Origin: Clostridia bacterium
GTDB lineage: Bacteria; Bacillota; Clostridia; UMGS1883
Direction: 5' to 3'
DNA length: 64,000 bases
Assembly (NCBI GenBank): GCA_051866635.1
Contig: JBJDXJ010000052.1
Coordinates: forward strand, 1-64,000
Below, in pieces: positions 2,431 to 11,800 of this stretch. Numbering within the stretch: position 1 is the first letter of the stretch; each line of letters opens with the position of its first letter. The notes beneath the pieces were generated by a model, which saw nothing but the letters and a program-made list of their open reading frames with translations, did no database searches and was not told where the DNA came from. Position numbers and translations under genes: made by a program.

Positions 2431-2996
2431 ATGAAAAAAACACTTTTTGTAAATGCATGCGTGCGTGAAAACTCCAGAACCCTTGAATTGGCAAGGTACA
2501 TGTTGGACAAGTTAAACGGTGAGATTTGTGAAATAAACTTAGAAAAGGAAAACTTAAAGCCACTTGACAGCGATATGCTCAAAAAAAGAGAACAACTTAC
2601 AAACGAAAACAATTTTTGTGATAATATGTTTAATTACGCAAAGAATTTTGCATCGGCGGATACCATAGTAATTGCCGCACCATACTGGGATTTGTCGTTC
2701 CCTGCACTTTTGAAAATCTATCTTGAACAGATAACAGTCTCGGGAATTACATTTAGGTATAAAAAAGGTGCCCCCATGGAATGTGCCGTGCAAGATGGCT
2801 AATTTACATAACAACCGCAGGCGGCTTAGTTTATGATAGCTTTGGATTTGAATATGTGAAGGCACTGGCACAGAAGCTTTACGGTATAAATGAAGTTCTG
2901 CTTTTCAAGGCAGAAAATCTTGATATAGAAGGCAATGATGTAACAGAAATTATAGATAAAGCAAAGGATAAAATAGATGCGGAAAGTTGGGAGTGA
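2431..2996 (+). pseudogene. Frameshifted flavodoxin-fold FMN-dependent NAD(P)H azoreductase/quinone reductase (AcpD/AzoR-like)
   Basis: ORF from 2431 (LFVNACVRENSRT, IVIAAPYWDLSFPALLKIYLE) continues in another frame as CRARWLIYITTAGG...; one base is missing near 2775-2780. Confidence 0.75.
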
Positions 2997-3961
2997 AATC
3001 CTTGGGCATAAAAGCAAGACAGTTTGCCGACGACGGTTGGGGAATATGGATAGACGGAGATGACAGAAGTACAGTTTACTTAAACGAATGGATTAATCCG
3101 AAGGGCAAAAGCTATGTGGATGTAGGTGTAAGAATTTACGGTGCCAAAGAAGCAGATGAGCTTAATATTTATGTTCCCTTTAAAATAAACAGTAACGAAA
3201 TAACGGATTTATCAGGTGAGCTTAATGACAGAGATATTTTAAGAGGACTTTTTAATACTTATGGCATTGTTGATGCAGAGAAAAATAAATATACGTCTGA
3301 AATTAAGTATGACTCTCGCATAGTAAGTCTTATCAAGCTTTATGATGAGATTTTGAAAGCAGAATATGTAGCTGACGGAACCGTAATAAAGGTGGCAATG
3401 AATAAAATCAGGCAATGTATAACAAGTGATGAGGCTTATGTTATATTCAGAATACCCCATATAACCTTAGATAAAATATTTGTACCACAAAGAAATGTCC
3501 GAGGAAGCATAGAAAGGCTTAAGGAGCTTATTTCAACGCCCACTGTTACAGAGAAATACGGATACTCTATACGCATTAATGAAGCAAGGCTTCTTCCTTG
3601 TGAGATTAATAAAATTGAAGTATTGCATCAGCAACGAATTCGCAAGGCACTTATTACCATTTCTATCAATGAAGAATATGAACTGAACGATTCTAATTGC
3701 TATCGCATACGTCGCATGGAAGAAGATTTATACAAGAACTATGCACCATTAGGCTTTGACTGCTCCGGTGCTATCACATATCAATGGGTGGAAGCGAGAG
3801 ACAAGAATATGAAGGCCCATTTTAACTTTTATTTTGACATTGTGCATAGCAAAATCAGCCCTAAAAGTGTAATGCTGTATGTGCTTATTATTTTAGTTAC
3901 GGCGGTAGCAGGCAGTGCACTGTATGATTTGATAAAGCTTATAATTACGCTATTATTGTGA
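2987..3961 (+). CDS. Hypothetical protein with a single C-terminal transmembrane helix (start may be TTG at 3002)
   Basis: 324-aa ORF overlapping the upstream stop; hydrophobic C-terminus VMLYVLIILVTAVAGSALYDLIKLIITLLL; no family recognised. Confidence 0.8.
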   Translation: MGVKSLGIKARQFADDGWGIWIDGDDRSTVYLNEWINPKGKSYVDVGVRIYGAKEADELNIYVPFKINSNEITDLSGELNDRDILRGLFNTYGIVDAEKNKYTSEIKYDSRIVSLIKLYDEILKAEYVADGTVIKVAMNKIRQCITSDEAYVIFRIPHITLDKIFVPQRNVRGSIERLKELISTPTVTEKYGYSIRINEARLLPCEINKIEVLHQQRIRKALITISINEEYELNDSNCYRIRRMEEDLYKNYAPLGFDCSGAITYQWVEARDKNMKAHFNFYFDIVHSKISPKSVMLYVLIILVTAVAGSALYDLIKLIITLLL

Positions 3962-3974
3962 GGAGGAATGATAT

Positions 3975-5048
3975 ATGAACTTAAAAAACAGGCTTATTTT
4001 AGAGGACTATAGAAAACAGCGGGACGATTTTGTGAAACTGGGCGATGTTGTTCACAATATGCTTACCGATATTGTTTCAGAATTGGGAATTACAGTGCTT
4101 GGCATCGAACACCGTGTGAAGGCAGAGAAGAGTCTTGCAGGCAAGCTGGAGCGAAACGGAGATTGGTATTCTCAATTTGAAGATTTAACTGATATTTTAG
4201 GTGCTCGCGTTATCTGCTTTTTCTCTGATGAAATTGATAAAATAGGTAAAAAAGTTGAGGAGTCTTTTGTAATTGACTGGGAAAATTCATCGGACAAAAG
4301 AGCACTGATTAAGGCAGACACCTTTGGATATTTGTCCCTTCACTACATCTGTTCACTGCCCTTTGGGGACAAGTGGCCTGACGAGATTTGCGGAAAAAGA
4401 TTTGAAATACAGATAAGGACAACTTTGCAGCATACATGGGCGGCAATAAATCACGACTTAGGTTACAAGAGCCAGTTTGGTGTTCCCAGGGAAGTTTCAA
4501 GACAGTTTGCACGGATTGCCGGACTTTTGGAAATTGCCGATGATGAATTTGTGCGTGTCCGCAATAACATGAAAAATTATACCGAGGACATCCGTCAGAA
4601 AATCATTGAAAATAAAGCCGATGATGTACATATTGATATGATTTCCTTAAATGAATATGTGAAGCGAAATGTCAGGATGCAGGAGTTAATTTCACACATT
4701 GCAAAGATAAGCAATGCGGAAATAAGCGAGATTGACCCGGAGAGTTATATTGTTCAGCTTAAATTTTTGGGCAAGGAAACACTGGGTGATTTACAAAATA
4801 TGTTAGAGGAAAACAGATGCCTTGCAGTAAAGCTTGCTGAAAAGTCCTTAGCAAACGCCGATTTGGACATACTTTCTTCAAGTGTCGGCTTGCGGTTTTT
4901 GTGTAGGGCAGAGCTGTTAAACAAAAATTGTTCACAAGAAACGATAACAGAATTTTTGAAGCTTTCTATGGGAACAGAAGAAAAAGCACAAAGGCAGGCA
5001 AAGCATTTGCTTCGTACTTATGAAAAAGTGAAGGAGGAATGTGAATGA
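3975..5048 (+). CDS. Small alarmone synthetase (RelA/SpoT synthetase domain) with a C-terminal extension
   Basis: HRVKAEKSLAGK, DLTDILGARVI, GYLSLHY and EIQIRTTLQHTWAAINHDLGYK motifs; AGGAGG RBS. Confidence 0.92.
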   Translation: MNLKNRLILEDYRKQRDDFVKLGDVVHNMLTDIVSELGITVLGIEHRVKAEKSLAGKLERNGDWYSQFEDLTDILGARVICFFSDEIDKIGKKVEESFVIDWENSSDKRALIKADTFGYLSLHYICSLPFGDKWPDEICGKRFEIQIRTTLQHTWAAINHDLGYKSQFGVPREVSRQFARIAGLLEIADDEFVRVRNNMKNYTEDIRQKIIENKADDVHIDMISLNEYVKRNVRMQELISHIAKISNAEISEIDPESYIVQLKFLGKETLGDLQNMLEENRCLAVKLAEKSLANADLDILSSSVGLRFLCRAELLNKNCSQETITEFLKLSMGTEEKAQRQAKHLLRTYEKVKEECE

Positions 5049-5578
5049 GTGATGAAGAACGTATAGATAAAGCCTTGCAGTTTGCAAGAGAAAAACACAA
5101 GGGGCAGTTTCGCATAGGCGGTGAGGAGTATATCACACATCCTATGGCGGTGTCTGAAATTGTGAAAGAGCAAGGTTACGGAATTGAAGTTCAAATTACA
5201 GCACTGTTTCACGATTTACTGGAAGATACCGATGCAACAGAGGATGAAATTTTATCTTACGGAAACGAAGAAATTTTAAAAGCCGTAAAGCTATTAACAA
5301 AGCAAAAGGGCTATAATATGGCAGAATACGTAGAAGGTATCCGCAAAAATGAAACAGCATTTATAGTAAAGGGGGCAGACAGACTGCATAACTTAAATTG
5401 TGCAGTTGTGGCAGATAGGGATTTTAAGCGAAAATATATTTTAGAAACAGTTGACTGGTATTTAGATTTTTCGCCTGAAATTCCAAAAGCGGTAAAAACC
5501 CTTGCGGAATCAATGGACACACCGCTTGTAGAACTGCCGTTTTTATATGAACCCATTGAAACATGGAAAATAAATTAA
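5045..5578 (+). CDS. Small alarmone hydrolase (Mesh1/SpoT-type HD domain)
   Basis: AREKHKGQFR...YITHP, LFHDLLEDT and VKGADRLHNL motifs; ATGA overlap with the synthetase stop. Confidence 0.9.
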   Translation: MSDEERIDKALQFAREKHKGQFRIGGEEYITHPMAVSEIVKEQGYGIEVQITALFHDLLEDTDATEDEILSYGNEEILKAVKLLTKQKGYNMAEYVEGIRKNETAFIVKGADRLHNLNCAVVADRDFKRKYILETVDWYLDFSPEIPKAVKTLAESMDTPLVELPFLYEPIETWKIN

Positions 5579-5598
5579 ATTTAAAGGGGAAATTTATT

Positions 5599-5895
5599 AT
5601 GACTATTGAAAAGAAAATCGAAAATGGAAACGTAACACTTACAATAAAAGGCAGACTTGATACAACAACAGCACCGGAACTTGATAAAACACTTGATGAT
5701 GTACTTGGAGGTACAAAAGAGCTTGTGTTTGATATGACAGGTCTTGAGTATATTTCATCGGCGGGACTCAGAGTAATCTTAAAAGCACAGAAGGCTATGA
5801 ATACACAGGGCAGTATGAAACTTATGGGCGTAAATGACAGTATTATGGAAGTATTTGATATTACAGGATTTTTAGATATTCTTACTATTGAGTAA
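5599..5895 (+). CDS. STAS-domain anti-sigma-factor antagonist (RsbV/SpoIIAA-like)
   Basis: GRLDTTTAP and FDMTGLEYISSAGLR with the phosphoacceptor Ser; ATG at 5599 after a GGGGA RBS. Confidence 0.92.
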   Translation: MTIEKKIENGNVTLTIKGRLDTTTAPELDKTLDDVLGGTKELVFDMTGLEYISSAGLRVILKAQKAMNTQGSMKLMGVNDSIMEVFDITGFLDILTIE

Positions 5896-5910
5896 TAAGG
5901 GGAGAAAGCT

Positions 5911-8712
5911 ATGACTTTGAAATTGCTGATACCTGCACTTTGTAATGCAGTTTTGGCGGTTGTTCTTTATTTAATAGAGAAAAAAACTCCTTTTACAAAA
6001 GTAAATAACCGAATTAAGCAATGCATTATTGGCATACTGTTCGGTGCACTGGCAGCATTTTCCTCAGAATACGGTGTTGATGTGGGAGGTGCCGTAATGA
6101 ATGTTCGTGACGCATCGCCCCTTTGTGCAGGGCTTATTTTCGGTGCCCCTGCAGGAATTATTTCGGGTGTTATCGGCGGTGCGTATCGCTACTTTGCCGT
6201 TTTTTGGGGTGCCGGTGAATATACAAGGCTTGCCTGTTCTGTTTCAACAGTGCTTGCAGGTTTTATAGCCGCTACTTTGCGAAAGTATATGTTTGACGAT
6301 AAAAAGCCCTCTTGGATATACGGTCTTGGAGTAGGTATGGTGTGTGAAGTTTTACACATGCTATTAATTTTCCTTACAAACATGACCGATGCAACACGTG
6401 CATTTACATTTGTACAAAGTTGTACCGTTTCCATGGTGTTGGCTAACGGCATTGGGGTGGGATTAGCAGTTATGGCGGTGTCAATTCTTGGCAAAGAAAA
6501 GATAAATCTTCGCAAGGAACAAAAGCAGATTTCCCAAACCTTTCAATTCTGGCTGTTTATATGCATTGTAATCGCTTATGTTACTACAAGTGTCTTTACA
6601 TATAGCTTGCAAACAGGTATGGCAAGCAAGGAAACAGAGGAAGTCATAAATATTAATTTAAGTGATGTTCATAAGGATATTACCGATGCTTCCGATGAAA
6701 ACTTACTTAAAATTACACGTGCTGTAAAGAATGAATATGTTTCTTATAATACGCCTCTTTCAGTTCTTTGCGAAAAGTATAATATAAAGGGAATAAACAT
6801 TGTTGATAAAAACGGGAAAATAGTTAATTCTACAATTCCTGACTTTATAGACTACGATATGGCCAGTGGAGAACAGTCAAAGGAATTTTTGGTGCTTCTT
6901 GACGGGCAGGAAGAGTTTGCACAGAAATATCAGCCACTTTCAATTGATAATTCGATTTCAAGAAAATATGCCGCTGTGAGGTTGCCTGACGGCGGATTTA
7001 TACAGGTAGGCTATGATGCCGAGCAGTTCCAAAATGATATTGACAGCATTGTTATAGATGCTGCAAATAACCGCCATGTGGGCAACAGCGGTTTTGTTGC
7101 AATCTGTGACGAAGCTTGGAATGTTGTTGTTGACCGCGGCGACTATTCGGGAAAAAATCTGAGCACAACGTACAGTTGGATTGATATGGACACAATGCCC
7201 GAAAATACGGTGTTTGAGGCAGAAGTCTACGGCCAATCTTATTTTGTTGCCTACACTTTTGCCGAGGGTTATTACATTATAGGTGCAATGCCTAAGAGTG
7301 AAGCCATGTTTATGCGAAATGTTTCCGTATATGTAAGTATATTTATGGAAATTATCATTTTTGCCGCCTTATTTATTTTGATTTATTTCTTAATAAAGAA
7401 AGTAATCATAGACAATTTGCGTAAAATAAACGGTAGCCTTGCCCAGATTACCGAAGGAAACCTTAATGTAACGGTAGATGTCCGTACTAATGAGGAATTT
7501 GCATCTCTTTCTGACGATATTAACCATACCGTTGGAACTTTAAAGCATTATATTAAAGAAGCGGCGGCAAGAATTGATAAGGAATTGGAATTTGCAAAAC
7601 AAATTCAGTATTCCGCACTTCCGTCTGTATTTCCTCCGTATCCAAACCGAAAGGATTTTGATATTTACGCACAAATGATAACTGCAAAAGAGGTCGGCGG
7701 TGATTTTTATGATTTTTATATGCTTTCTGAAAGCACCCTTGCCTTTTTAATTGCTGATGTATCGGGGAAGGGAATCCCTGCGGCAATGTTTATGATGCGG
7801 GCAAAGACCATCATTAAAGACCTTGCTGAAAGCGGTATGGAATTATCCGAAATTTTTGTTTCAGCCAATAAGAAGCTATGTGAGAACAATGATGCGGGTA
7901 TGTTTGTCACTGCGTGGATGGGAATACTGGACTTGAAAACAGGACTTCTGAAATTTGTCAATGCAGGACATAATCCGCCACTTATAAAGAAAGAAAACGG
8001 TGAATTTATCTATCTGAAAGATAGAAGCGGTATGGTACTTGCAGGCATGGAGGGAGTTAAATACCGTCAAAAGGAAATTCAGCTTATGCCGGGAGATAGA
8101 ATATTCCTTTACACAGACGGCGTAACCGAGGCAACAGACAAAAATAATCAGCTTTACGGTGAGGAACGCCTTTTGAAAACGGTGAACCAAAACATTGGAA
8201 AGGACACAAAAGATTTATGTGAAGCCGTAAAGATGGAGGTGGATAAGTTTGTTGGCAATGCACCGCAGTTTGACGATATTACCATGCTCAGTGTGGAACT
8301 TAAATATATCATGGATGAAAATTCCATTAGTGTAATTGCCGATGATAAATCCATAATTCCTGTCAGTGAGTTTGCAAACAGCCTTACAAAAAAACTTTCA
8401 GTTGTGCCGAAAATTGCAAATAAAGTTAGCATAGCCGTGGATGAAATATATTCCAATATAATAAATTACAGCCATGCGAAAATAGCAACGGTTTCTTACA
8501 GCATAGATGACTCAAAGCTCTATATGACTTTTACCGATGATGGCATGGAATACAATCCCCTTGAGGCCAAGGAACCTGATATTACCCTTTCTGCAGAGAA
8601 GAGAGAAATCGGGGGATTAGGAATTTTTATGGTAAAGAAAATGACTGAAAGCATGGAGTATATTTATGAGAATGATAAAAATATTTTGAAACTTGTCATA
8701 TCATTAAATTAA
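5911..8712 (+). CDS. Membrane sensor: LytS-type 5TM domain, extracellular Cache-like region, HAMP, SpoIIE/PP2C phosphatase and RsbW-type HATPase kinase
   Basis: N-terminal TM bundle (NVRDASPLCAGLIFG); HAMP (GNLNVTVDVRTNEEFASL); PP2C motifs VGGDFYD, IADVSGKG, NAGH, YTDGVTEA, DDIT; kinase motifs DEIYSNI, DDG, GGLGIF. Confidence 0.88.
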   Translation: MTLKLLIPALCNAVLAVVLYLIEKKTPFTKVNNRIKQCIIGILFGALAAFSSEYGVDVGGAVMNVRDASPLCAGLIFGAPAGIISGVIGGAYRYFAVFWGAGEYTRLACSVSTVLAGFIAATLRKYMFDDKKPSWIYGLGVGMVCEVLHMLLIFLTNMTDATRAFTFVQSCTVSMVLANGIGVGLAVMAVSILGKEKINLRKEQKQISQTFQFWLFICIVIAYVTTSVFTYSLQTGMASKETEEVININLSDVHKDITDASDENLLKITRAVKNEYVSYNTPLSVLCEKYNIKGINIVDKNGKIVNSTIPDFIDYDMASGEQSKEFLVLLDGQEEFAQKYQPLSIDNSISRKYAAVRLPDGGFIQVGYDAEQFQNDIDSIVIDAANNRHVGNSGFVAICDEAWNVVVDRGDYSGKNLSTTYSWIDMDTMPENTVFEAEVYGQSYFVAYTFAEGYYIIGAMPKSEAMFMRNVSVYVSIFMEIIIFAALFILIYFLIKKVIIDNLRKINGSLAQITEGNLNVTVDVRTNEEFASLSDDINHTVGTLKHYIKEAAARIDKELEFAKQIQYSALPSVFPPYPNRKDFDIYAQMITAKEVGGDFYDFYMLSESTLAFLIADVSGKGIPAAMFMMRAKTIIKDLAESGMELSEIFVSANKKLCENNDAGMFVTAWMGILDLKTGLLKFVNAGHNPPLIKKENGEFIYLKDRSGMVLAGMEGVKYRQKEIQLMPGDRIFLYTDGVTEATDKNNQLYGEERLLKTVNQNIGKDTKDLCEAVKMEVDKFVGNAPQFDDITMLSVELKYIMDENSISVIADDKSIIPVSEFANSLTKKLSVVPKIANKVSIAVDEIYSNIINYSHAKIATVSYSIDDSKLYMTFTDDGMEYNPLEAKEPDITLSAEKREIGGLGIFMVKKMTESMEYIYENDKNILKLVISLN

Positions 8713-8717
8713 AATCG

Positions 8718-8746
8718 TGTGGCGGTCGAAAGGCTGCCACATTTTT
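8718..8746 (+). terminator. Rho-independent terminator
   Basis: TGTGGCGGTC-GAAA-GGCTGCCACA followed by TTTTT. Confidence 0.8.
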
Positions 8747-8851
8747 GTATATCAATAAACGAGGTCATATAAAACAACTTTTACCCATAGTGACTTTCAT
8801 TGAATTATTTATTATACTCAAAATAAGGAAGAAATGAAAGGAAGACGAAAT

Positions 8852-11800
8852 ATGAAAAAATGTGGGAAAAAGTCAATTGCGGCAATTATGGCGTGTCTAT
8901 TGACTGTAGGAGTGGTAAATTGCTTTGCTAAGGAGGGGGTACCTTATAGTATGAAAATCATGGATATGACGGTGGAATATCAGACTAATCCCATTGGCAT
9001 TGATACAGATTGTGTGCGTTTTGGCTGGAAAATGGTGTCTGATAAAATAGGAAGCAGACAGACAGCTTATGAAATACGTGTATATGAAAAGGATGGAGAT
9101 ACTCTTGTATGGGACAGCGGAATGATAAAAGATAGCCACTCAGTAGGTATAAAATATGAGGGTGACTCCTTAGGTGAGGCTACAGCCTATAAATGGTCTG
9201 TTACCATCTGGGATGAAATGGGATTATCTTTCACCTCCGATGAAGCAATTTTTGAAACATCTGTTACAAATCAGAAGGAGTGGAAGGAAGCAAAGTTTAT
9301 CTGTATGAACAAAAGCTCCTCTGCACCCATTTTCAGAACGGAACAAAAGCTTGTAAATGAAAACATTTCTTCTGCAAGACTATATATTACCGCTTTGGGA
9401 GTATACAAAGCATATGTAAACGGAAACAGGGTCTGTGCCTATGAGGATGGGAAAAGGGTGTACCATCATATGAACCCGGGCTATGGAAACGGAAACGTAA
9501 GCCTTGGATACCAGACTTATGATGTAACAGATTTTATAGAAGGGGAAAGTGTGGTCCTTTCGGCTATGTGCGGAACGGGGTGGTACAACTCTATGAGTGC
9601 CACATCTTCTCAGCCTGCTCTTAAGGCACTCCTTACGATTACTTATAAAAGCGGAGAAAAGCAGTATATCTCAACTGATACGGATAACTGGAAAGGTACC
9701 ATTGACGGACCAATAACTGAAAACGGCGTTTACTACGGCGAGAACTACGACGCACGACTTGCGAAAAAACTGGGAGATTTTACCCTTCTCGGCTATGATG
9801 ACAGTTGTTGGGTAAGCGGTTTGGAAAAAGATATTCCCGTAATAGAAAATACATTCCCTGCACGTACTGCAAGATATGTAAGATTGTCTGTTTCTGAGAC
9901 CGGCCCTGCCGTTAAAGCCGACAAGGAAAACAGACTACAGATAATGGAGCTTGAGCTGTTAGACGAAAAGGGAAATAATGCCGCCTACGGAATAGTTCCC
10001 GAAGTTTCCGATGAATTCACATGGGGCAGTCAGTGGATAAGAGCAAATATATCTGATGGTGACAAAGGATACAATTCGGACAAAGGTTACAGTTCAACAA
10101 TTTTGGGCAGAGGGCAGACTTCTCTTTCTTTAGATAAGCCCATAACTTTTACCTTTGACCTTTCTGAAAAAACACAAATCAACACACTTAGAATTTACCC
10201 AAGAGTGACGATTGAATCTATAAACGGTAACGAATGTGTAAATTACCCTAAAAAATACACTATAGAAGTATCTTCAGACGGTGAAAACTGGGAGACTATA
10301 GGTGAATATGAAATTGAAAGTTTAAAAAATACTACGATGAGCACCACTGAATTTGAAGGTGACATCCGTTCACAAATGGGTACTGTGGGAAAAATTATAG
10401 ATGAGTATTCTACGGAGCCTCAGTATGCGGTTTTGTACACGACTACCAATGAAAATTCACAATATGAAGGCGGAGAAATTAAAGTTGATGAATATTATGC
10501 CTTCACTGCTCCCGAAGATTCACTCTACAGCGGTGCATATATTCCTGTTAAAGAAGGGCAAAAGCTTTTTGACGGTGGAATAGTTCTAAAAAAGGGACAG
10601 ACAATGGTAGTTGATATGGGACAGAATATGAGTGCTGTGCCTGAAATTGAGTTTTCCGCACCAAAAGGAACCCAACTTACTATGTGTTTTGGTGAAATGT
10701 TAAACGATGGTAGTGCTGTTGGTACAGAGCGTACACAAGCAGATGGACCAAAGGGTTCTATTTATCAAAAAAGTTTGAGAAATGCACGTTCAAAGGTGAA
10801 TTATATTTTTTCTGGAGATGAAAAAGAGCATTATATGCCGTCAATGTCCTTTTTTGGGTATAGATATGTGGGAATTACCGCTACCGATGATGTAACTATT
10901 TATTCCCTTAAATCAAAGGCTCTTTCATCGGTAAATAAAAAGACGGGTTATATACATACAAATAACGAAAATGTGAATAAGCTGTTTTCAAATACCCTAT
11001 ACGGTCAACTCAGCAACTATTTCACCACCGCTACAGACTGTAACCAGCGTGACGAACGCCTTTTCTGGAGTGGTGATACACAAGCATTTGCCCAGACTGC
11101 AGTATACAATTTCAACTCCCTTCCGTTTTTAAATGATTTACAGGATATACTTTCCGAAAACACAATGAGAAAGGGGTATGTTCCATCTGTTGTAGATAAC
11201 GACGGATATTTCAGTAATTGGGCGGCAGGCTGGAGCGATGTTTTAATTATCCTTCCATGGACCCTTTATAAACAGACAGGGGATAAGAATATACTTTCAG
11301 AGAATTACAAAGCAATGGAAAGATATATGGAATATCTTAAAGAGAACGAGCGTTCTTTAAACCAGTCACCCCTTAGCCATATGAACTTTGGGGATTGGCT
11401 TTCTTTCCAAGGTACGTGCATTGAGGTTATGTCCGATTATTACTACGGTTATGTAACTAAGATAATGGCGGAGGTTGCCTCAATATTAGGTGACGAGGAA
11501 GGAAAAACAAAATACGAGCAAAAGTTTGAAGATATAAAAAATAAATTCTTGTCAACACACGTTACATTTGAAAAAGGCAATCTTACAATAAAGTCAGGAA
11601 CAGGCGATACAAGCAAGCAGTTTGGATATCGTGAAGGAAAGGGCGGAAAATGGGAGGATAATTCCCAGACCGCACTTTTGTGGATGCTTAAACTGAAGTT
11701 TTACAGCAGTGAAGAAATGCACGATGCGGCTCTTGATTTACTTACAGCTAACATAAAAAATGAAAATCCGTCACCATACAGTGTGAGATATTCCAGCGGA

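Follow-up and report, generated by a model that had tools for sequence, protein, structure and literature searches.

A candidate partner-switch-controlled alarmone operon in a Clostridia bacterium

Introduction

In Bacillus, the RsbU/V/W-sigmaB and SpoIIE/SpoIIAA/SpoIIAB-sigmaF partner switches are assembled from three protein families, a PP2C phosphatase, an RsbW-type kinase and a STAS protein with a phospho-serine motif, and their output is a sigma factor. A second group of switches has no sigma output, and one of its proteins, HsbR, is a PP2C/kinase fusion. In SiaABCD of Pseudomonas aeruginosa, HptB-HsbR-HsbA-HsbD and BgrSTUWV-BgrR, a PP2C phosphatase and a Ser/Thr kinase determine the phosphorylation of a STAS or STAS-like partner, which controls a second-messenger synthetase, the diguanylate cyclases SiaD, HsbD and BgrR, respectively; direct binding (SiaC-SiaD, HsbA-HsbD, BgrV-BgrR) is the rule among the known non-sigma partner switches (PMC8457831). 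Here we describe an operon at the start of a 64,000-nucleotide (nt) stretch of a Clostridia bacterium genome (contig JBJDXJ010000052.1, positions 1 to 64,000; hereafter the window), in which the parts of a partner switch stand together with genes for a small alarmone synthetase (SAS) and a small alarmone hydrolase (SAH).

Control of SASs known so far is mostly transcriptional or allosteric, and RelQ and RelP (SAS1 and SAS2) are regulated in these two ways. CapRel carries a C-terminal regulatory domain on its SAS. Long bifunctional RelA/SpoT homologues (RSHs; Rel and SpoT) combine a synthetase and a hydrolase that act on one alarmone under an attached regulatory module. Toxic SASs (toxSASs) may be paired with a SAH able to degrade their product, as in FaRel-ATfaRel, and all toxSASs tested were neutralised by SAH (PMC7229694).

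The initial annotation of the operon stated that no characterised system with this layout was known. A full-text literature search, outside supplements and subscription journals, likewise found no alarmone synthetase joined to STAS, RsbW, PP2C or partner switching. The words ppGpp, alarmone and second messenger do not occur in the STAS review PMC8256260, nor do STAS, anti-sigma, phosphatase or SpoIIE occur in the main text of PMC7229694, whose supplementary FlaGs datasets might show the neighbourhood. Non-sigma partner switches and SAS/SAH pairs are each already known; their combination did not appear in the literature searched.

Results

Five co-directional genes make up the operon, and their contents, as first proposed, are backed by Pfam matches and hydropathy. 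Gene 1 (3002..3961, + strand, 319 aa) encodes a predicted tail-anchored protein without a family, gene 2 (3975..5048, +, 357 aa) a long SAS with a RelA_SpoT domain, gene 3 (5045..5578, +, 177 aa) a SAH with an HD_4 domain, gene 4 (5599..5895, +, 98 aa) a single-domain STAS protein, and gene 5 (5911..8712, +, 933 aa) a membrane fusion of 5TMR-LYT, HAMP, PP2C and RsbW-kinase domains. The raw open reading frames (ORFs) on the + strand run from 2987-3961, 3975-5048, 5045-5578, 5563-5895 and 5911-8712, and two of the starts were revised. In relatives the conserved N-terminal part of gene 1 is immediately preceded by a stop codon, so its start is most likely TTG 3002, inside a frame open from TTG 2987. 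The STAS homologues are 98 aa long and an AGGGG box lies 5' of ATG 5599, which probably places the STAS start at that codon, 20 nt after SAH, in a frame open from 5563. With the corrected starts the junctions are +13 (gene 1-SAS), -4 (SAS-SAH, an ATGA overlap), +20 (SAH-STAS) and +15 nt (STAS-fusion), and a GGAGG-like box is found 7-9 nt 5' of all five genes. The operon had first been drawn at 2987-8712 with overlaps or gaps of 13-20 nt; the five co-directional genes and their close spacing hold, and the left edge probably moves to 3002.

An intrinsic-terminator-like hairpin with a T tract (8717..8752, +) begins 5 nt past the gene 5 stop, where a closing terminator had been placed at 8718. The hairpin itself (8717-8742) has an 11-pair stem with 6 G-C pairs and a loop of 4, followed by TTTTTGTATAT. 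It was the strongest of 6 sites in a terminator scan that overall did not exceed chance (4.9 +/- 2.2 in shuffles). Within genes there are two further hairpins on the + strand, both weak (3581-3593 and 6337-6364).

The comparison of SAS neighbourhoods proposed in the initial annotation was carried out as a species-level scan, one genome per species, with flank content called by profile scans and tblastn. It returned 36 loci, 35 with SASs 66-89% identical to that of the window and one, from Treponema (L034), at 49%. At least one partner-switch part is kept beside SAS in 34/36 loci. STAS was detected in 34 of them and SAH in 33; gene 1 was present in 27, the kinase and PP2C in 25 each, and all five genes in 20; most of the missing genes coincide with contig ends. 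Two complete gene orders were observed. The order of the window (type A), unknown-SAS-SAH-STAS-PP2C/kinase, occurs in 14 of the 36, and a second order (type B), unknown-PP2C/kinase-STAS-SAS-SAH-STAS, in 7. A further 13 loci are truncated pieces, each compatible with one of the two orders, and one (L016) matches neither. SAS-SAH-STAS is the constant core of these loci; SAS and SAH, which overlap, are found together in 33, always within the larger cassette. Retention of the same content through rearranged orders is a classical sign of functional linkage.

Single polypeptides also join parts of the cassette. P0271 (627 aa) carries RelA_SpoT (residues 46-167), HD_4 (369-479) and STAS (536-626) in one chain; it is 57% identical to the window SAS over 99% of the latter, and its STAS part has kept both the LEYISSAG motif and the tail DITGF...ILTIE seen in STAS of the window type. 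In P0027 (521 aa) an RsbW-type kinase domain (HATPase_c_2, 17-140) lies ahead of a long SAS (RelA_SpoT 203-325), P0003 (528 aa) is a fusion of SAS and HD_4, and P0272 (645 aa, 14 member sequences) joins SAS to an APH domain. Any one of P0271, P0027 and P0003 could be a gene-calling artefact, the first being a cluster with one member and the other two single representatives. Taken together, these three sequences point to physical proximity of the parts.

The linkage extends beyond close orthologues. A metagenome scan with the SAS family alignment, in which co-directional hits within 6 kb were counted, yielded 80 loci with SASs 36-89% identical to that of the window. At least one partner-switch part was present in 50 (STAS in 47, kinase in 39, PP2C in 29; SAH was present in 32), and in 23 of the 27 loci that had at least 5 kb on both flanks. 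STAS lay no more than 100 nt from SAS in 35 of the 80, and the commonest order was PP2C-kinase-STAS-SAS. Distant relatives whose SASs are 36-45% identical keep the switch with its genes split or fused differently. L061 has a 149-aa stand-alone RsbW-like kinase, STAS and SAS followed by a dCache hybrid histidine kinase. In L058, PP2C lies on one side of SAS and a 172-aa kinase and STAS diverge on the other. L098 encodes a dCache-PP2C-kinase fusion, STAS, SAS, an APH-family phosphotransferase, HD_4 and a tyrosine-phosphatase-like gene, and L100 has SAS, an HD_4::APH fusion, a DAGK::kinase fusion, dCache-HAMP-PP2C and STAS.

On the SAS tree, the linked loci fall mainly into two clades. FastTree was run on 119 SAS rows, with 11 rows left out, and a short IQ-TREE search was made on 41 representatives. 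In the FastTree phylogeny, a 51-row clade comprises 43 linked rows, 8 with short flanks and no unlinked row with full flanks; the window's own 40-row clade has 37 linked rows, and L058 and L081 are linked too. The linkage label needs to change 12 times on the tree, compared with 32.2 times in shuffles (0/500 as low), and the IQ-TREE representatives gave the same picture. The initial annotation had counted it against its proposal if SAS and SAH homologues mostly occurred without STAS and PP2C genes; that pattern describes distant branches of the family and not the clade of the window.

We next consider the output candidate itself. The SAS has a RelA_SpoT domain (PF04607) at residues 46-167 of 357 (69.3 bits, cut-off 27; E 4.3e-19), has sequence matches to the SAS1, SAS2 and RelP structures and is 22-25% identical to RelQ/RelP. 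Residues R47, K49, D73, R78, E144, Q146, H153, Y164 and K165 are invariant in 52 family members. Its AlphaFold2 (AF2) model was confident (mean pLDDT 93.3), and residues 1-~205 superposed on B. subtilis SAS1 (5dec) with a Z of 19.3 and an rmsd of 2.7 A over 180 residues (VIA). In the same comparison the catalytic domain matched RelP (Z 19.1) and SAS2 (18.8), and more weakly CapRel (13.1), Tas1 (11.2) and FaRel (7.2). Judged from the model, the catalytic domain resembles RelQ/RelP far more than the toxic SASs, and on this ground a (p)ppGpp-type product is the likeliest.

Beyond the catalytic domain, residues ~215-357 of the SAS form a predicted helical domain of ~150 extra residues that is conserved down to 49% identity; the Foldseek and VIA match lists were filled by the catalytic domain (model residues 1-189 spanned). 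The SAS family sharing this C-terminal domain has 1121 cluster representatives at E<=1e-30, mostly of 350-380 aa. Two more familiar identities were considered and rejected. An ordinary RelQ orthologue is a single-domain protein of ~200-230 aa, and the window SAS has 357 aa and scored 53.9 bits against the YjbM equivalog NF053588, far under its cut-off of 320. A fused toxin-antitoxin of the CapRel type fits poorly as well, the full-length Foldseek alignment to CapRel giving a TM of 0.40 and an rmsd of 21 A. A hydropathy scan found no hydrophobic segment in SAS or SAH. In a separate set of ~820-890-aa proteins (P0275-P0291), RelA_SpoT is joined to RyR (PF02026) and TPR-like domains.

The SAH matched HD_4 (PF13328) with 50.2 bits (cut-off 27.2; E 3.1e-13) and TIGR00691 spoT_relA over profile positions 1-141, and its alignment to the Rel hydrolase domain keeps HP, HDxxED and ADRLHN. 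It also aligns with SpoT hydrolase domains, a (p)ppApp hydrolase and MESH1, and the alarmone made by the cassette is accordingly not readable from sequence.

The gene 4 product is a classical STAS protein (Pfam STAS 63.5 bits, cut-off 22.6, E 1.8e-17; TIGR00377 anti-sigma-factor antagonist 75.2 bits, cut-off 53.45) with PDB matches to SpoIIAA and RsbV. Within its motif LEYISSAGLRV, Y51, S53, S54, A55 and G56 are invariant in 18 sequences from three paralogue groups, and the serine in YISSAG is the putative phosphorylation site of the switch.

In the gene 5 fusion, Pfam identified 5TM-5TMR_LYT at residues 33-190 (nt 6007-6480), a HAMP match under cut-off at 499-545 (nt 7405-7545), SpoIIE/PP2C at 607-797 (nt 7729-8301; 178.3 bits) and HATPase_c_2 at 811-929 (nt 8341-8697; 53.1 bits, cut-off 27.4). 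The protein has seven to eight hydrophobic segments, with a ~235-aa loop between two of them (nt ~6610-7314). PP2C residues D598, D601, D616, D736, D788 and D789 are invariant in 14 orthologues, as are kinase residues E845, N849, D876, G878 and G901-G904, ATP-lid glycines among them, which presumably form the N, G1 and G2 boxes. Hence the catalytic motifs reported as intact in the initial annotation (STAS YISSAG; SAH HP, HDxxED and ADRLHN; the PP2C Asp residues; the kinase boxes) are all present. The top NCBIfam match of the fusion was the SiaA phosphatase, far under cut-off. A complex prediction of SAS, the kinase domain (residues 798-933) and STAS scored 0.68, against 0.56 when an unrelated protein replaced the kinase domain, which by the rule of the method speaks neither for nor against binding.

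The product of gene 1 had no match in Pfam, NCBIfam or PADLOC. Its single hydrophobic segment (residues 284-319) is at the extreme C-terminus in the hydropathy scan, and a poor AF2 model (mean pLDDT 58.8) includes a helix at 287-318, which together suggest a cytoplasmic, beta-rich N-terminal part with the C-terminal hydrophobic helix serving as a tail anchor. The best structural match (Z 5.2) was a generic beta-sandwich and uninformative. The 3710 homologues are all unnamed, and an Atlas search with one of them (P0257) returned 'hypothetical protein' clusters only. Gene 1 was present only beside SASs of at least 60% identity (27/36 genome loci, 6/80 metagenome loci) and in these searches is restricted to the window's clade.

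Partner switches of the RsbU/V/W and SpoIIE/AA/AB type end in a sequestered sigma factor, for which the gene mostly belongs to the same operon, and none was found here. The assembly (2.33 Mb, 96.6% complete) contains nine Sigma70_r2 matches, none of which is on the window's contig (C52), and there is no sigma domain among the annotated neighbours of L004, L025, L058, L061, L098 and L100. The statement that no sigma factor is encoded here is therefore borne out for the operon, the contig and the annotated loci of relatives. STAS genes number only two in this genome, and no more than two HATPase_c_2 domains score above threshold; the other pair, on contig C42, has a sigma70-type gene directly after it, in the layout spoIIAA-spoIIAB-sigF. 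Three RelA_SpoT genes are present, encoding a 723-aa long RSH, a 219-aa SAS and the 357-aa SAS of the window.

The operon of the window is flanked by a cell-wall hydrolase gene and a rhamnosidase/AraC pair (Pfam). Immediately upstream, a Flavodoxin_2/FMN_red gene is split into overlapping ORFs (2341-2802 and 2781-2996), a sign of a frameshift or of misassembly near 2790. Only 5 nt separate the end of the downstream ORF from the probable gene 1 start, and co-transcription of this ORF with the cassette is therefore possible.

The surroundings of the cassette vary among relatives. Directly upstream of gene 1 in L004 (1981-7028), genes for a LytS-type histidine kinase and a receiver protein precede a third STAS paralogue, an unknown ORF of 131 aa and a diguanylate cyclase with dCache, HAMP and GGDEF domains; 13 of the type-A loci are similar. 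This LytS/receiver/STAS/GGDEF block is absent from the window. Neighbourhoods that contain it may feed both cyclic di-GMP (c-di-GMP) and alarmone outputs. Six type-B loci (L017, L020, L023, L026, L027 at 7357-7935, and L031) have a conserved ORF of ~197 aa, without a Pfam match, between SAS and the STAS adjacent to PP2C/kinase. A DUF975 membrane protein gene lies between SAH and STAS in L006, L011, L014 (6155-6841), L024 and L035; in L006 and L011 it is preceded by a gene for an 888-904-aa secreted protein, and in L012 a similar 888-aa gene follows SAH before the contig ends. Insertions at the SAH-STAS junction are thus tolerated by the cassette. An Amidohydro_1 gene just upstream of the cassette in L025 (2564-3859) and L100 (6778-7965), which differ in architecture, may be a coincidence.

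In the distant linked clade an APH-family phosphotransferase accompanies SAS: it lies between SAS and SAH in L098 (9055-9894), is fused to HD_4 in L100 (9074-10486) and is fused to SAS in P0272. L100 also encodes a diacylglycerol-kinase/YegS-like domain fused to an RsbW-type kinase domain (10464-11789). In L058 (340-4849), STAS, a HATPase_c_2::Acyl_transf_3 fusion, HAMP-PP2C and another Acyl_transf_3 form what appears to be a second partner switch, wired to an acyltransferase.

Discussion

The gene content, the integrity of the motifs, the evolutionary linkage and the existence of fusions are direct observations, and from them we consider it rather likely that the operon is a partner-switch-controlled alarmone module in which SAS is the output in place of a sigma factor. 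A partner switch wired to alarmone enzymes is probably a real, undescribed way of setting alarmone levels. The locus shares with the Bacillus switches the three protein families and the phospho-serine motif, and in relatives with the order PP2C-kinase-STAS-SAS or kinase-STAS-SAS the SAS occupies the position of the sigma gene. Unlike those switches, the locus has no sigma gene, either within the operon or elsewhere on the contig, and a single membrane sensor protein carries both the kinase and the phosphatase.

By analogy, the window cassette would work like the SiaABCD, HsbR/A/D and BgrR group without being a member of it. Its candidate output is a RelA/SpoT synthetase with a dedicated HD hydrolase rather than a GGDEF enzyme, its sensor is a 5TMR-LYT domain with an extracytoplasmic loop, and its STAS is of the classical SpoIIAA/RsbV type, not DUF1987. 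The catalytic fold and motifs are those of RelQ/RelP, whereas the window SAS has a C-terminal domain of ~150 residues and its regulation would be by phospho-switch. P0271, with SAS, HD_4 and STAS in one chain, resembles a bifunctional enzyme invented anew, in which STAS would be the regulatory domain. Unlike Rel/SpoT, it has the synthetase first and a phosphorylatable STAS instead of the ribosome-read TGS/ACT. The window genome keeps a normal 723-aa RSH at another locus.

Contacts, switch direction, product and signal are all predicted here from sequence. A signal received at the 5TMR-LYT domain and the extracytoplasmic loop would shift the balance of PP2C and kinase activity in the fusion protein, and this balance would set the phosphorylation state of the STAS serine. 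We infer that STAS phosphorylation sets synthetase or hydrolase activity: one state of STAS would engage the long SAS, probably via the conserved C-terminal helical domain, and turn synthesis on or off. Two routes can be envisaged. STAS may bind SAS directly, as SiaC binds SiaD, or it may displace SAS from the kinase domain, on the model of RsbV-RsbW-sigmaB. Displacement is favoured by the kinase::SAS fusion and by the gene order kinase-STAS-SAS. The partner in direct contact could be the kinase domain instead of STAS. The translationally coupled SAH would degrade the product, making the signal transient and avoiding self-poisoning, and the tail-anchored gene 1 product would be a membrane-bound accessory, possibly a scaffold or an effector.

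Several observations weigh against a partner switch with SAS as its output. A sigma factor from another part of the genome may still be the protein that the fused kinase domain holds. The distribution is patchy: an orthologue was found in 10/399 genomes of the class, over 7 family codes, and in 0/7 other genomes of the window's own family. Such patchiness suggests an accessory, horizontally moving cassette that shifts as a unit, and toxin and defence modules are often distributed likewise. SAH was detected in only 15 of the 27 metagenome loci with full flanks (32/80 overall) and is absent in L058 and L061; the SAH model was narrowly trained and may miss some, and as it stands the synthetase-hydrolase pair is not a universal core. 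Four metagenome loci with full flanks (L075, L082, L091 and L109) have no partner-switch part, the switch is missing from all 7 loci with 46-59% SAS identity, which form a clade together with the Treponema SAS, and in the Treponema locus itself (L034) SAS stands alone. Four distant long SASs from a phylum sample are also without a switch. Long SAS relatives (27-42% identity) were found on 80 predicted viral contigs (L142-L221), 47 of them covering at least 300 of 357 profile positions, and STAS, kinase, PP2C, SAH or gene 1 was near SAS in 0/80. These unlinked relatives indicate that the SAS family can also work without the switch and that some of its members reside on predicted (pro)viral contigs. 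Finally, one tree comes from FastTree and the other from a brief IQ-TREE search, and several long branches were flagged.

The alternative that survives best, and which we still judge unlikely, is that the SAS is a regulated toxin acting in growth arrest, dormancy or abortive infection. It would make (pp)pApp or pyrophosphorylate tRNA, SAH would be its type IV antidote, and the switch would release the toxin on envelope or phage stress. SAS-plus-SAH toxSAS systems are known, as outlined above, and the 4-nt overlap of SAS and SAH is common in toxin-antitoxin pairs. The C-terminal domain recalls the fused toxin-antitoxin CapRel, the cassette is patchy and crosses families, and distant long SASs lie on predicted viral contigs. 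The PADLOC candidate defence model PDC-S33 also matches the SAS (5.6e-16); however, the match is limited to the catalytic core (profile positions 42-176 of 349, SAS residues 17-157). The catalytic domain is much nearer to the housekeeping RelQ/RelP than to any toxSAS compared (Z 19 versus 13 for CapRel, 11 for Tas1 and 7 for FaRel). The window has a five-gene cassette with a sensor and a switch, unlike toxSAS pairs, and in many linked loci SAH is missing from the 6 kb around SAS. The membrane sensors, Cache or 5TMR-LYT, are typical for nutrient or envelope sensing, the flanks of the operon contain no defence island, and the switch is missing from all 80 viral loci.

Less probable still is that the switch controls another target, such as a distant sigma factor, gene 1 or a neighbouring diguanylate cyclase, with SAS and SAH merely co-transcribed and alarmone output following transcription. 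The genome does carry nine sigma70-type genes elsewhere, and in many type-A relatives a further STAS lies a short way upstream, beside a GGDEF enzyme. More than one output is likely in type-B loci, given their two STAS paralogues, and switches in these bacteria are wired to varied enzymes, for example through the kinase::acyltransferase fusion in L058. Against this, SAS is the sole constant neighbour across at least three architectures, down to 36% SAS identity, and gene 1, the GGDEF enzyme and SAH are not constant. The short distance between STAS and SAS in 35 of the metagenome loci and the single polypeptides that join SAS, SAH and STAS, or kinase and SAS, likewise argue for SAS as the target. 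Chance adjacency of an SAS/SAH pair and a partner switch in one genome, conceivable since each module exists alone elsewhere, can be rejected as having a negligible probability, contradicted by the linkage in 34/36 genome and 50/80 metagenome loci, the rearranged orders and the fusions.

With SAS as the output of the switch still the preferred reading, we suggest a broader scheme, which we hold tentatively and at somewhat less than even chances. The operon would belong to a widespread partner-switch alarmone family of gut and rumen anaerobes in which a RelQ-like SAS with a C-terminal docking domain replaces the sigma factor and STAS phosphorylation toggles synthesis versus hydrolysis. It would amount to a bifunctional Rel divided into separate proteins and independent of the ribosome, with extracellular cues entering via Cache or 5TMR-LYT sensors, and in some genomes it would be coupled via STAS paralogues to c-di-GMP synthesis. 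The fusion proteins and the three-gene kinase-STAS-SAS versions offer tractable material for biochemistry.

If this is correct, there would be a direct, ribosome-independent route from a membrane sensor to alarmone levels, and (p)ppGpp-type nucleotides would join c-di-GMP as outputs of partner switches. The conserved C-terminal domain, common to a SAS family of over 1100 cluster representatives, would likewise acquire a role. Since the carriers are abundant herbivore-gut Clostridia, the signal may concern nutrient status or the state of the cell envelope in the gut.

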